DNA of 38,946 bases, taken from the NCBI RefSeq assembly GCF_003334255.1, contig NZ_QOWU01000055.1; one strand, written 5' to 3'. This DNA is from Escherichia coli (GTDB lineage Bacteria; Pseudomonadota; Gammaproteobacteria; Enterobacterales; Enterobacteriaceae). Shown one piece after another: positions 5,410 to 37,294 of the stretch (position 1 is the first letter of the stretch; each line of letters opens with the position of its first letter). Position numbers and translations under genes: made by a program. The notes beneath the pieces are model-generated. The model did not search any database, was not told the origin of the DNA, and was given only the letters and a program-made list of their open reading frames with translations.

Positions 5410-5617
<208 letters not shown>

Positions 5618-6914: not shown

Positions 6915-7034
6915 AGGTTGCTCCGGGCTATGAAATAGAAAAATGAATCCGTTGAAGCCTGCTTTTTTATACTAACTTGAGCGAAACGGGAAGGTAAAAA
7001 GACAAAAAGTTGTTTTTAATACCTTTAAGTGATA

Positions 7035-11168: not shown

Positions 11169-11910
11169 TAAACAAGCCATTGCAGCGGCATTTGGTCGGG
11201 CAGCCGCACACTATGAGCAACATGCAGATCTACAGCGCCAGAGTGCTGACGCCTTACTGGCAATGCTTCCACAGCGTAAATACACCCACGTACTGGACGC
11301 GGGTTGTGGACCTGGCTGGATGAGCCGCCACTGGCGGGAACGTCACGCGCAGGTGACGGCCTTAGATCTCTCGCCGCCAATGCTTGTTCAGGCACGCCAG
11401 AAGGATGCCGCAGACCATTATCTGGCGGGAGATATCGAATCCCTGCCGTTAGCGACTGCGACGTTCGATCTTGCATGGAGCAATCTCGCAGTGCAGTGGT
11501 GCGGTAATTTATCCACGGCACTCCGCGAGCTGTATCGGGTGGTGCGCCCCAAAGGCGTGGTCGCGTTTACCACGCTGGTGCAGGGATCGTTACCCGAACT
11601 GCATCAGGCGTGGCAGGCGGTGGACGAGCGTCCGCATGCTAATCGCTTTTTACCGCCAGATGAAATCGAACAGTCGCTGAACGGCGTGCATTATCAACAT
11701 CATATTCAGCCCATCACGCTGTGGTTTGATGATGCGCTCAGTGCCATGCGTTCGCTGAAAGGCATCGGTGCCACGCATCTTCATGAAGGGCGCGACCCGC
11801 GAATATTAACGCGTTCGCAGTTGCAGCGATTGCAACTGGCCTGGCCGCAACAGCAGGGGCGATATCCTCTGACGTATCATCTTTTTTTGGGAGTGATTGC
11901 TCGTGAGTAA
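11155..11910 (+). CDS. bioC: Malonyl-ACP O-methyltransferase
   Basis: ORF track frame 11116..11910; start at ATG 11155 ([13 protein letters not shown], 251 aa); SAM-methyltransferase motif DAGCGPG; overlaps bioF end. Confidence 0.93.
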
Positions 11911-12580
11911 ACGTTATTTTGTCACCGGAACGGATACCGAAGTGGGGAAAACTGTCGCCAGTTGTGCACTTTTACAAGCCGCAAAGGCAGCAGGCTACCG
12001 GACGGCAGGTTATAAACCGGTCGCCTCTGGCAGCGAAAAGACCCCGGAAGGTTTACGCAATAGCGACGCGCTGGCGTTACAGCGCAACAGCAGCCTGCAG
12101 CTGGATTACGCAACAGTAAATCCTTACACCTTCGCAGAACCCACTTCGCCGCACATCATCAGCGCGCAAGAGGGCAGACCGATAGAATCATTGGTAATGA
12201 GCGCCGGATTACGCGCGCTTGAACAACAGGCTGACTGGGTGTTAGTGGAAGGTGCTGGCGGCTGGTTTACGCCGCTTTCTGACACTTTCACTTTTGCAGA
12301 TTGGGTAACACAGGAACAACTGCCGGTGATACTGGTAGTTGGTGTGAAACTCGGCTGTATTAATCACGCGATGTTGACTGCACAGGTAATACAACACGCC
12401 GGACTGACTCTGGCGGGTTGGGTGGCGAACGATGTTACGCCTCCGGGAAAACGTCACGCTGAATATATGACCACGCTCACCCGCATGATTCCCGCGCCGC
12501 TGCTGGGAGAGATCCCCTGGCTTGCAGAAAATCCAGAAAATGCGGCAACCGGAAAGTACATAAACCTTGCCTTGTTGTAG
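11903..12580 (+). CDS. bioD: Dethiobiotin synthetase
   Basis: GTG start at 11903 giving [17 protein letters not shown] (P-loop), 225 aa; overlaps bioC stop by 8 bp. Confidence 0.93.
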
Positions 12581-12593
12581 CCATTCTGTATTT

Positions 12594-12641
12594 GGTTAAA
12601 TTGCGAGCGAGATCGCGTCTTCGATTGACTGCAATTTAACC
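12594..12641 (+). terminator. Large stem-loop (11-bp stem GGTTAAATTGC/GCAATTTAACC, 26-nt loop) after bioD; candidate bio operon terminator
   Basis: Perfect 11-bp inverted repeat read directly, 14 bp after the bioD stop, followed by an A/T-rich tract. Confidence 0.4.
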
Positions 12642-12739
12642 AATTAAATTCTAAAATAATCACGAAAAAAATTTTACTTCCGCCTCATGCGGCGAATGTG
12701 GGAATTGCCCAGGCGGCGGGGGATAGGGGCTGGAGACAG

Positions 12740-12762
12740 TTATCCACTATTCCTGTGGATAA
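12740..12762. promoter_or_regulatory. Pair of inverted DnaA boxes (TTATCCACT, then TTATCCACA on the opposite strand) upstream of uvrB
   Basis: TTATCCACT at 12740-12748 (8/9 match to the DnaA-box consensus TTATNCACA) and TGTGGATAA at 12754-12762 (perfect consensus on the minus strand), 5-bp spacer. Confidence 0.6.
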
Positions 12763-13064
12763 CCATGTGTATTAGAGTTAGAAAACACGAGGCAAGCGAG
12801 AGAATACGCGGCTTGCACGCGAATTGGCGTTAAAGACGGCTCAAAGAAATATCTTTTATTTTTTAACTGGTTAGATAAATGCAATGGCAGTCACTGAACA
12901 GGCATCTCTTGCCATAAAACTGTCATCACTCATCTTGACAAATGTTAAAAAAGCCGTTGCTTTGGGGATAACCCGGTAAGGCCGGAGTTTTATCTCGCCA
13001 CAGAGTAAATTTTGCTCATGATTGACAGCGGAGTTTACGCTGTATCAGAAATATTATGGTGATG

Positions 13065-13084
13065 AACTGTTTTTTTATCCAGTA
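13065..13084. promoter_or_regulatory. LexA (SOS) box of uvrB overlapping a perfect TATAAT -10 hexamer
   Basis: AACTGTTTTTTTATCCAGTA with CTG-N10-CAG spacing (13067-13082); TATAAT at 13083-13088; 70 bp upstream of the uvrB start. Confidence 0.85.
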
Positions 13085-13158
13085 TAATTTGTTGGCATAA
13101 TTAAGTACGACGAGTAAAATTACATACCTGCCCGCCCAACTCCTTCAGGTAGCGACTC

Positions 13159-15180
<2,022 letters not shown>

Positions 15181-15217: not shown

Positions 15218-15315
15218 GCCTGATGCGCTACGCTTATCAGGCCTACATTTTCTCCGCAATATATTGAATTTGCGCGGTTTGTAGGCCGGATAAGGCGTTC
15301 ACGCCGCATCCGGCA
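15218..15315. repeat. BIME (two inverted REP elements) downstream of uvrB
   Basis: GCCTGATGCGCTACGCTTATCAGGCCTAC (15218-15246) and GTAGGCCGGATAAGGCGTTCACGCCGCATCCGGCA (15281-15315) with a conserved linker. Confidence 0.85.
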
Positions 15316-16529: not shown

Positions 16530-16676
16530 CACGCTAGTATCGGCATAACCACTAAACACTCTAGCCTCTGCACCTGGGTCAACTGATACGGTGCTTTGGC
16601 CGTGACAATGCTCGTAAAGATTGCCACCAGGGCGAAGGAAGAAATGACTTCGCCTCCCGTATCTGGAAAGGTGTAC
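16530..16676 (+). ncRNA. Moco riboswitch (cis-regulatory RNA) in the moaA 5' leader
   Basis: Leader ends with GAAGGAAGAAATGACTTCGCCTCCCG just before the moaA start, as expected for the molybdenum-cofactor RNA motif. The 5' boundary is approximate and no structure was computed. Confidence 0.55.
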
Positions 16677-17666
16677 ATGGCTTCACAACTGACTGATGCA
16701 TTTGCGCGTAAGTTTTACTACTTGCGCCTGTCGATTACCGATGTGTGTAACTTTCGTTGCACCTACTGCCTGCCGGATGGCTACAAACCGAGCGGCGTCA
16801 CCAATAAAGGCTTTCTTACCGTCGATGAAATTCGCCGGGTTACGCGCGCCTTCGCCAGTCTGGGCACCGAAAAAGTGCGCCTGACAGGAGGAGAGCCGTC
16901 TTTACGCCGCGACTTTACCGATATCATCGCCGCTGTGCGGGAAAACGACGCTATCCGCCAGATTGCGGTCACAACCAATGGTTACCGTCTGGAACGCGAT
17001 GTGGCGAGCTGGCGCGATGCGGGACTTACTGGCATTAACGTCAGTGTCGACAGTCTGGACGCCCGCCAGTTTCACGCTATTACCGGGCAGGATAAATTCA
17101 ACCAGGTCATGGCAGGGATTGATGCTGCATTTGAGGCCGGTTTTGAGAAGGTCAAAGTCAATACCGTGCTGATGCGTGATGTTAATCATCACCAGCTCGA
17201 CACCTTTCTGAACTGGATCCAGCATCGCCCTATCCAGCTGCGTTTCATCGAACTGATGGAAACGGGCGAGGGCAGCGAGCTCTTCCGTAAGCATCACATC
17301 TCTGGTCAGGTTCTGCGTGACGAGCTACTGCGTCGCGGCTGGATCCACCAATTACGTCAACGCAGCGACGGTCCCGCGCAAGTCTTTTGCCATCCAGATT
17401 ACGCCGGAGAGATTGGCCTTATCATGCCGTATGAAAAAGACTTCTGCGCCACTTGCAACCGCCTGCGCGTTTCCTCCATTGGTAAACTCCATCTCTGCCT
17501 GTTTGGTGAAGGCGGCGTTAACCTGCGCGATCTGCTGGAAGACGATACCCAGCAACAGGCGCTGGAAGCGCGTATTTCAGCGGCGCTGCGGGAGAAGAAA
17601 CAGACCCATTTCCTGCATCAAAACAACACCGGTATTACGCAAAACTTATCGTACATTGGCGGCTAA
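16677..17666 (+). CDS. moaA: GTP 3',8-cyclase (molybdenum cofactor biosynthesis protein A, radical SAM)
   Basis: ORF track frame 16596..17666; ATG at 16677 ([31 protein letters not shown]) giving 329 aa. Confidence 0.95.
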
Positions 17667-31921: not shown

Positions 31922-32020
<99 letters not shown>

Positions 32021-37165: not shown

Positions 37166-37294
37166 ACTTGTGCTGGACGTAGCGTAAACGCCTGATCCGT
37201 CCAACGGTTCGGATTTTGTAGGCCTGATAAGACGCGGTAGCGTCGCATCAGGCATCTGTTGCCGGATGCGGCGTAAACGCCTTATCCGTCCTAC
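37166..37294. repeat. REP/BIME cluster downstream of ybiJ
   Basis: GTAGGCCTGATAAGACGCGGTAGCGTCGCATCAGGC (37218-37253) and GCCGGATGCGGCGTAAACGCCTTATCCGTCCTAC (37261-37294), plus a partial REP-like segment upstream. Confidence 0.8.

Follow-up and report, generated by a model that had tools for sequence, protein, structure and literature searches.

Why two facing DnaA boxes should stand in front of the repair gene uvrB is the question raised by positions 12740-12762 of the window, i.e. the whole stretch of Escherichia coli DNA that was analysed (38,946 nucleotides of contig NZ_QOWU01000055.1), which read TTATCCACT-ATTCC-TGTGGATAA. The left box, hereafter box I (12740-12748, + strand, TTATCCACT), agrees with TTATNCACA at 8 of 9 positions, the mismatch being at position 9, and has one mismatch to TTWTNCACA. 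A 5-bp spacer (ATTCC, 12749-12753) separates it from box II (12754-12762, - strand), which has the perfect consensus TTATCCACA and is the sole perfect TTATNCACA within the 38.9-kb window. The first-pass annotation had described two facing boxes, one of them a perfect consensus, 5 bp apart and about 400 bp upstream of uvrB; the window sequence confirms the pair, and the distance from the end of box II to the uvrB ATG (13159) is 396 bp. Both of the claimed boxes are real, but a third one was overlooked. Box III (12766-12774, - strand, TAATACACA, one mismatch) begins exactly 3 bp past box II and has the same orientation as box II, bringing the number of boxes to three. The strands of boxes I, II and III are +, - and -, the first two boxes being head-to-head and the last two head-to-tail. 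Box I corresponds to DnaA-box7 as Wurihan et al. 2018 number the boxes of the uvrB promoter, and boxes II and III to DnaA-box6 and DnaA-box5 of the uvrB promoter region, respectively.

We identify the facing pair as boxes I and II of DARS1, the core of which is completed by box III, in the bioD-uvrB intergenic region, and we put the probability of this reading at about 95%. The boxes lie between bioD (CDS 11903-12580, + strand, the upstream neighbour) and uvrB (CDS 13159-15180, + strand), both assigned by annotation and ORF. The locus is identical to 812700-813800 of K-12 MG1655 at 1101 of 1101 positions; window position x corresponds to MG1655 position x + 800367, which sets the three boxes at MG1655 813107-813141. 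The double DnaA box cTAATACACAtggTTATCCACAg assigned to DARS1 in a ChIP-seq study (PMC11317965) corresponds exactly to 12753-12775 of the window on the - strand, and the primer sites of the DARS1 deletion in PMC4585315, at 12557-12591 and 13034-13073, enclose the boxes. [quoted passage not shown] Three boxes, the opposite orientation of box I, spacers of 5 and 3 bp and the identity with the experimental DARS1 locus are all found in the window. The window element and DARS1 of E. coli K-12 are the same element, with no difference in boxes, orientations, spacers or flanks.

The founding DARS paper is reportedly that of Fujimitsu et al. 2009, which is said to place DARS1 in the bioD-uvrB intergenic region at 17.5 min. 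The element is already known and well characterised, and its re-finding brings nothing new on E. coli; its pick-up shows that a functional element of this kind is recognisable from sequence alone. The first-pass annotation had read the boxes as a site of DnaA control over a distal uvrB promoter, which is published, and missed both the DARS1 identity and the main established function of the site, as well as the specific tie of the inverted box I to nucleotide release. In what follows, binding, ADP release, initiation-mass effects and promoter repression are taken from the papers cited, while sequence identity, architecture and selection were computed here.

The bioD-uvrB intergenic region was matched in 5425 of 5426 complete E. 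coli genomes. Most of the "plasmid" matches to DARS1 are megabase-sized records, probably mislabelled chromosomes. Rfam returned no family at the gathering threshold for the intergenic region. For the DARS1 ChIP-seq peak a coordinate of 813,331 was published, which is off the boxes by about 200 bp, and motifs are said to lie at most 100 bp from peak centres (PMC11317965); either a misprint or the occupancy of weaker boxes downstream accounts for this offset.

Single DnaA boxes are common in DNA of this composition, and the pair might be considered a chance meeting of DnaA-box-like words. The window contains 57 DnaA-box sites with at most one mismatch (63 expected); perfect boxes are expected 1.28 times per window, and at least one was present in 80 of 100 shuffles. 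The facing pair TTATCCAC-N7-GTGGATAA, however, occurred in none of 100 dinucleotide-preserving shuffles of the window, even when two mismatches were allowed, whereas three boxes (at most one mismatch) within 35 bp, in any orientation, occurred in 43 of 300 Markov simulations. It is therefore the exact architecture that is non-random and not the density of boxes, and the loose statistic of three boxes in 35 bp was set aside because it is not significant. A chance origin is further contradicted by a 50-bp core query (12732-12781), for which 5423 of 5425 E. coli genomes show 100% identity wherever it aligned (48-50 of its 50 bases, some alignments beginning at base 3), by the conservation of the element upstream of uvrB across orders and by the experimental demonstration of DnaA binding (PMC11317965, PMC6015884). 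We consider the probability of a mere coincidence negligible.

The conservation is not confined to the boxes. Over the whole intergenic region (578 bp), 2327 of the E. coli genomes reach only 95-99% identity, and in three divergent E. coli haplotypes it shows 9, 13 and 18 differences, with none of them falling in 12734-12837. This SNP-free zone of 104 bp agrees with the published DARS1 of 101 bp, which consists of the core and a stimulatory region of about 50 bp (PMC5742627), and from it we infer the approximate extent of DARS1 as 12734-12837, comprising the core and a flank of about 50 bp on the uvrB side. Escherichia albertii shows 53 differences over 358 aligned bases, but 12737-12786 is free of them. 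When uvrB-linked loci are aligned, GAGTTAGAAAAC just past box III and the block GAGAATACGCGGCTTGC (12800-12816, within the flank) persist from Escherichia to Photorhabdus. Core and flank are under strong purifying selection. In vitro the flank stimulates the release of ADP, and it is as strongly conserved as the boxes, although its role in vivo is described as undetermined (PMC5742627).

What drives the contact between DnaA protomers and the release of ADP in DARS1 is that boxes I and II are arranged head-to-head. According to the mechanism published for this very sequence (PMC6868365), ADP-DnaA binds the consensus box II first, and the bound molecule recruits further ADP-DnaA to box III in head-to-tail and to box I in head-to-head fashion. 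Where the AAA+ domains of the box I and box II protomers meet head-to-head (a modelled, Gln208-dependent interface), the nucleotide pocket is loosened and lets ADP out, and the resulting apo-DnaA leaves the DNA and rebinds ATP, so that more ATP-DnaA is at hand when oriC next initiates. [quoted passage not shown] Stable binding of DnaA in vivo correlates with double boxes of the same orientation 2-3 bp apart (PMC11317965), and in DARS1 stable occupancy depends mainly on boxes II and III with their 3-bp spacer. Few non-coding elements of chromosomes are known to alter catalytically how active a replication initiator is, and DARS1 is among them.

The published phenotypes agree with reactivation. 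Deletion of DARS1 raises the initiation mass by about 20%, as does deletion of DARS2, and results in enlarged cells that have fewer origins and whose dnaA promoter is more active, while extra copies lower the initiation mass and high-copy DARS clones are deleterious. With DARS1 deleted, ATP-DnaA is lower and initiation comes later, and additional copies have a stimulating effect on initiation (PMC5742627 and other published work); the share of DARS1 in vivo is modest, below that of DARS2 (PMC5742627). A consensus box with cooperative neighbours could also work mainly as a passive sink that titrates DnaA, like datA in the titration model, instead of reactivating it catalytically, and deletion of DARS1 was indeed published to drop the chromosome-bound fraction of DnaA from about 75% to about 69%. 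The same study, however, puts this drop down to the lower ATP-DnaA. Removal of a sink should advance initiation, yet deletion of DARS1 delays it, and extra copies of DARS1 stimulate initiation where additional sinks should inhibit it. That titration is the main role of the site is, in our opinion, quite improbable.

The site of DnaA reactivation coincides with a promoter. The proposal of the first-pass annotation that DnaA, in addition to LexA, controls a distal uvrB promoter is partly supported: the control is real and has already been published, first in 1985. Later papers reportedly trace the link between DnaA and this promoter to van den Berg et al. 1985, where P3 is said to have been detected mainly in vitro. 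P3 is reportedly placed there at about 320 bp upstream of P2, a distance that would set it near 12776.

The distal promoter, uvrBp3, which the literature maps to this site, has its region at approximately 12740-12790 (+ strand, toward uvrB). The DnaA boxes overlap uvrBp3, and ATP-DnaA strongly protects DARS1 in DNase I footprints (PMC6015884). As the DARS1 boxes overlap the promoter, DnaA represses it: a TG-to-CA change in the consensus box (DnaA-box6, box II) raises uvrBp3-lacZ activity 5.9-fold, and 13.4-fold without LexA, and the activity of uvrBp3 is about 2-fold higher in dnaA(A345S) (PMC6015884). Expression of chromosomal uvrB, too, is published to be more than 3-fold higher in dnaA(A345S). 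Both DnaA and LexA repress uvrBp3, where boxes II and III share sequence with a weak LexA box (PMC6015884). We place this box, LexA-box4 (CTGTGGATAACCATGTGTAT), at approximately 12752-12771 (+ strand) from its description in PMC6015884 as having CTG at the left end, lacking CAG at the right and lying over DnaA-box5/6. Bound DnaA represses the weak uvrBp3 and competes there with LexA at the weak LexA site, the role that the first-pass annotation had proposed. The DnaA footprints and the 5.9-fold derepression speak for the proposed control, the quantitative importance of which is restricted by uvrBp3 being a minor promoter that, on a low-copy plasmid, supplies about 20% of full promoter activity (PMC6015884).

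A consensus scan of 12500-13250 returned no sigma-70-like hexamer pair at 12700-12800, hence none for uvrBp3, a silence that fits a weak, non-consensus promoter, since activity has been measured there (PMC6015884). Closer to uvrB, the consensus LexA box1 at uvrBp2 (AACTGTTTTTTTATCCAGTA, 13065-13084, + strand) matches exactly the sequence given in PMC6015884, and the promoter-like site TTGGCA-17-TAAAAT (13092-13120, + strand), with 10 of 12 consensus positions, is consistent with uvrBp1. Between uvrBp3 and uvrBp2 there are two secondary weak DnaA boxes on the - strand, TTTTTAACA (12943-12951) and TTATCCCCA (12963-12971), which are probably some of the DnaA-boxes 2-4 of PMC6015884.

These data might mean that the boxes serve only or primarily as a DnaA operator of uvrBp3, by which nucleotide excision repair is tuned to the state of the initiator, reactivation being incidental. 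The footprint, the derepression caused by mutation of box II and the raised uvrB expression in dnaA(A345S) are what such an operator would produce. The isolated DARS1 fragment, however, releases ADP from ADP-DnaA in vitro with no promoter function involved, deletion and extra copies of DARS1 shift the initiation mass and the ATP-DnaA level, and the promoter in question contributes only the fifth of activity mentioned above and was missed by the consensus scan. In addition, the inverted box I is superfluous for a simple operator, because a double box of the same orientation suffices for stable binding in vivo (PMC11317965). We regard a purely or primarily regulatory site as unlikely; the operator and the reactivation roles are not mutually exclusive, and DARS1 remains the reading that we adopt.

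The two facing boxes also constitute a 9-bp inverted repeat, which could form an RNA or DNA hairpin, e.g. a terminator for read-through from the bio operon, in place of a protein-binding site. A terminator scan flags 12739-12763 with a 9-pair stem and a 7-nt loop, and the predicted RNA fold has an energy of -15.5 kcal/mol (z = -2.5). Against this, only 4 of the 9 pairs of the stem are G-C, the stem is followed by CATGTGTATT and not by a U-tract, and both arms are specifically DnaA-box sequences. A hairpin cannot account for a third box at a fixed distance of 3 bp, which accompanies 69% of the facing pairs listed in the survey described below, nor for the presence of DnaA on the site in ChIP-seq (PMC11317965) and footprints (PMC6015884). 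A stronger candidate for the bio terminator, a hairpin with 16-nt arms and -20.9 kcal/mol, is situated directly 3' of bioD (12589-12646). An intrinsic terminator at 12739-12763 was rejected on the grounds of the stem composition, the lacking U-tract, the third box and the DnaA occupancy, and a hairpin function of any kind is very improbable.

DARS1 is best compared with DARS2, which is situated upstream of mutH at 64 min and, like DARS1, promotes the release of ADP from ADP-DnaA (PMC5742627). In MG1655, DARS2 has the structure TTATTCACC-5-TGTGGATAG-3-TGTGAAGAA, with box III on the mutH side; an inverted box I and spacers of 5 and 3 bp are common to both elements, and in both of them box III is on the side of a DNA repair gene. 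They differ in box sequences (CTATCCACA and TTCTTCACA in DARS2 versus TTATCCACA and TAATACACA in DARS1), and DARS2 comprises 455 bp with IHF and Fis sites and requires both proteins, whereas DARS1, at 101 bp, is cofactor-free in vitro (PMC5742627). DARS2 is also about 10 times more active than DARS1, stronger in vivo and cell-cycle regulated (PMC5742627). The DARS of plasmid ColE1 (Fujimitsu and Katayama 2004) is described as a 70-bp, plasmid-borne element; of its three DnaA boxes, two are indispensable and must have a defined orientation, and like DARS1 it promotes the exchange of ADP for ATP on DnaA. At dnaAp, nrdA, mioC, polA and purH, which are repressed by DnaA through a double DnaA box, the arrangement is the same as that of boxes II and III of DARS1 (PMC11317965), but these sites lack an extra inverted box at 5 bp and have not been reported to release ADP. 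Similarly to DARS1, datA is a non-coding cluster of DnaA boxes that alters the nucleotide state of DnaA away from oriC (PMC11317965, PMC5742627); unlike DARS1, it converts ATP-DnaA to ADP-DnaA, needs IHF, has another box arrangement and shows the opposite deletion phenotype (PMC5742627).

The distribution of the triad outside E. coli was surveyed by scanning one genome per species (GTDB representatives) for exact TTATCCAC-N7-GTGGATAA, which resulted in at least 120 loci with at least 123 pairs, the listed loci belonging mostly to Gamma- and Betaproteobacteria. Among the 123 pairs listed, a third box with at most two mismatches is found exactly 3 bp off one side in 85 (about 1.4% expected by chance) and one with at most one mismatch in 47 (about 0.14% expected), and TGTG is found exactly 3 bp past one box in 79 (0.8% by chance); the histogram of third-box spacers for the listed pairs has a sharp peak at 3 bp. 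According to ORF calls, 76 of the 85 triads listed are intergenic. In the uvrB-linked orthologues listed, position 9 of box I is never A, while in most other contexts box I is a perfect TTATCCACA.

Neighbouring genes were assigned by NCBIfam annotation and tblastn. The triad adjoins repair or replication-restart genes, eight in all, in 44 of the 120 loci listed, which suggests that its placement at promoters is not accidental and to that extent favours an operator role. The gene most often found is priA, with 16 of the loci listed; it is always on the box I side, 3-330 bp downstream of the triad in 14 loci (tblastn), and in the other two (L074 and L102) the triad is upstream of the gene by ORF position. 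Next comes uvrB, with 14 of the loci listed, in 3 of which only bioD is visible. Among the matches listed, uvrB-linked triads were found in E. albertii, Citrobacter, Enterobacter, Superficieibacter, Photorhabdus, Providencia, Vibrio, Shewanella, Pseudoalteromonas and Aliidiomarina, and box III invariably points to the uvrB side; the distance of the triad to the start codon is usually 350-590 bp. The remaining loci among those listed adjoin xseA (4 loci, on the box III side at about 200 bp), uvrC (4 loci, in Acetobacteraceae), recG (3 loci, in Legionella, where the triad is at the 3' end of the gene), mutS (1 locus with two triads upstream), mutH (1 locus, in Psychromonas) and ung (1 locus). 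The upstream region of E. coli priA contains no triad; consequently, the priA association seen in other genomes is not valid in E. coli.

That the DARS-type triad is a widespread module in the promoters of repair and restart genes across Proteobacteria, beyond the two loci of E. coli, is a possibility that we put forward tentatively and hold to be somewhat doubtful. Since the gene associations are not phylogenetically independent and derive from exact matches only, at no fewer than 120 loci, they are to be taken as a lead and not as a result. No paper describing an association of the triad with repair or restart genes was found in a literature search that did not cover Fujimitsu et al. 2009, and this cross-species association is the only part of the present analysis that might be new. 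If true, the position of DARS1 beside uvrB and of DARS2 beside mutH would represent an ancient, selected coupling of the nucleotide state or availability of DnaA to the expression of repair and restart genes; alternatively, transcription of repair and restart genes could gate the reactivation of DnaA. The placement of the two elements beside uvrB and mutH has long been noted, and should the association be confirmed and prove unreported, it would become a testable regulatory principle instead of a coincidence.

One triad locus is conserved in Pseudomonas. Its adjoining 316-aa ORF, for which neither NCBIfam nor Pfam gave a match, is probably spurious and due to high GC, and its other neighbour encodes a DUF1232 protein.

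DARS-type triads, in which DnaA box I, a 5-bp spacer, box II, a 3-bp spacer and box III follow one another, adjoin DNA repair or replication-restart genes in other Proteobacteria at 44 of 120 loci, counted among the matches listed (L003-L122, the exact matches to the facing pair of boxes I and II from a scan of one genome per species). Among these listed matches the neighbour is priA at 16 loci, on the box I side every time, and uvrB at 14; xseA and uvrC account for four each, the 3' end of recG for three, and mutS, mutH and ung for one locus each. Examples of such triads are located at L068:1780-1802, L081:2219-2241, L029:3707-3729, L031:5157-5379 and L042:3569-3591.

In all uvrB-linked orthologues of DARS1 (L033-L110), position 9 of box I (12740-12748) is T, C or G and never the consensus A, and box I of E. 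coli DARS2 likewise has a non-A residue at this position. Most priA- and xseA-linked triads, in contrast, have a perfect TTATCCACA as box I. The flank of DARS1 (12775-12837), which was reported to boost ADP release in vitro (PMC5742627), includes the block GAGAATACGCGGCTTGC (12800-12816), which is kept from Escherichia to Photorhabdus and is free of SNPs in E. coli.

The DnaA ChIP-seq peak assigned to DARS1 is printed with the coordinate 813,331 (PMC11317965), about 200 bp downstream of its listed double box (12753-12775, MG1655 813120-813142) and on a weak box, TTATCCCCA, at 12963-12971 (MG1655 813330-813338). Either the coordinate is a misprint for 813,131, or it reflects true occupancy of the downstream boxes.

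The facing pair is present in six copies in Legionella rowbothamii (L094-L098) and in eight in L. nagasakiensis (L111-L117), most of them with a third box. In at least five of the L. nagasakiensis copies the resemblance extends some 45 bp into the flank on either side, so the triad belongs to a dispersed repeat family in that species. Seven sampled Pseudomonas species (L009, L017, L021, L025, L052, L099 and L122) share one conserved triad locus, adjoined by a DUF1232 gene, with the sequence TTATCCACA-caaat/ttaat-TGTGGATAA-cct-TGTGAACAG.

Two E. coli strains carry insertions between DARS1 and uvrB. In VL7S7 (L124), an IS1 element with a 9-bp target duplication at 13056-13064 lies directly upstream of LexA box1 and uvrBp2, and places about 0.8 kb between the intact DARS1 with its overlapping distal promoter uvrBp3 and the proximal promoters uvrBp1-2 with uvrB itself. 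In ZH063 (L128), foreign DNA with a gene for a terminase large subunit breaks the bioD-uvrB intergenic region after 12926 (~12926/12927); the insert is a prophage, integrated so that DARS1 lies on one side of it and the proximal promoters of uvrB on the other. DARS1 was also found in phage records that match 12700-12860 (H41/H42), namely in the “transduced bio-locus” of Escherichia phage DN1 (100% identical) and in vB_EcoP-720R6 (98.8% identity). Since phages carry DARS1, infection by such phages would bring extra copies of it. The attB core of phage lambda, GCTTTTTTATACTAA, has an exact match at 6961-6975, upstream of bioA.

An A+T-rich long inverted repeat (12589-12646) starts 9 bp past the bioD stop codon; its 16-nt arms are 26 nt apart and its predicted folding energy is -20.9 kcal/mol (z = -3.6). 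No clear U-tract was found after this repeat, which may mark where the bio operon transcript ends. Rfam matches at the gathering score comprise a Moco riboswitch before moaA (16545-16689), two copies of the REP-derived naRNA4 (5492-5562 and 37221-37291) and two of ES036, one directly downstream of uvrB (15239-15280) and the other at 31943-31985.
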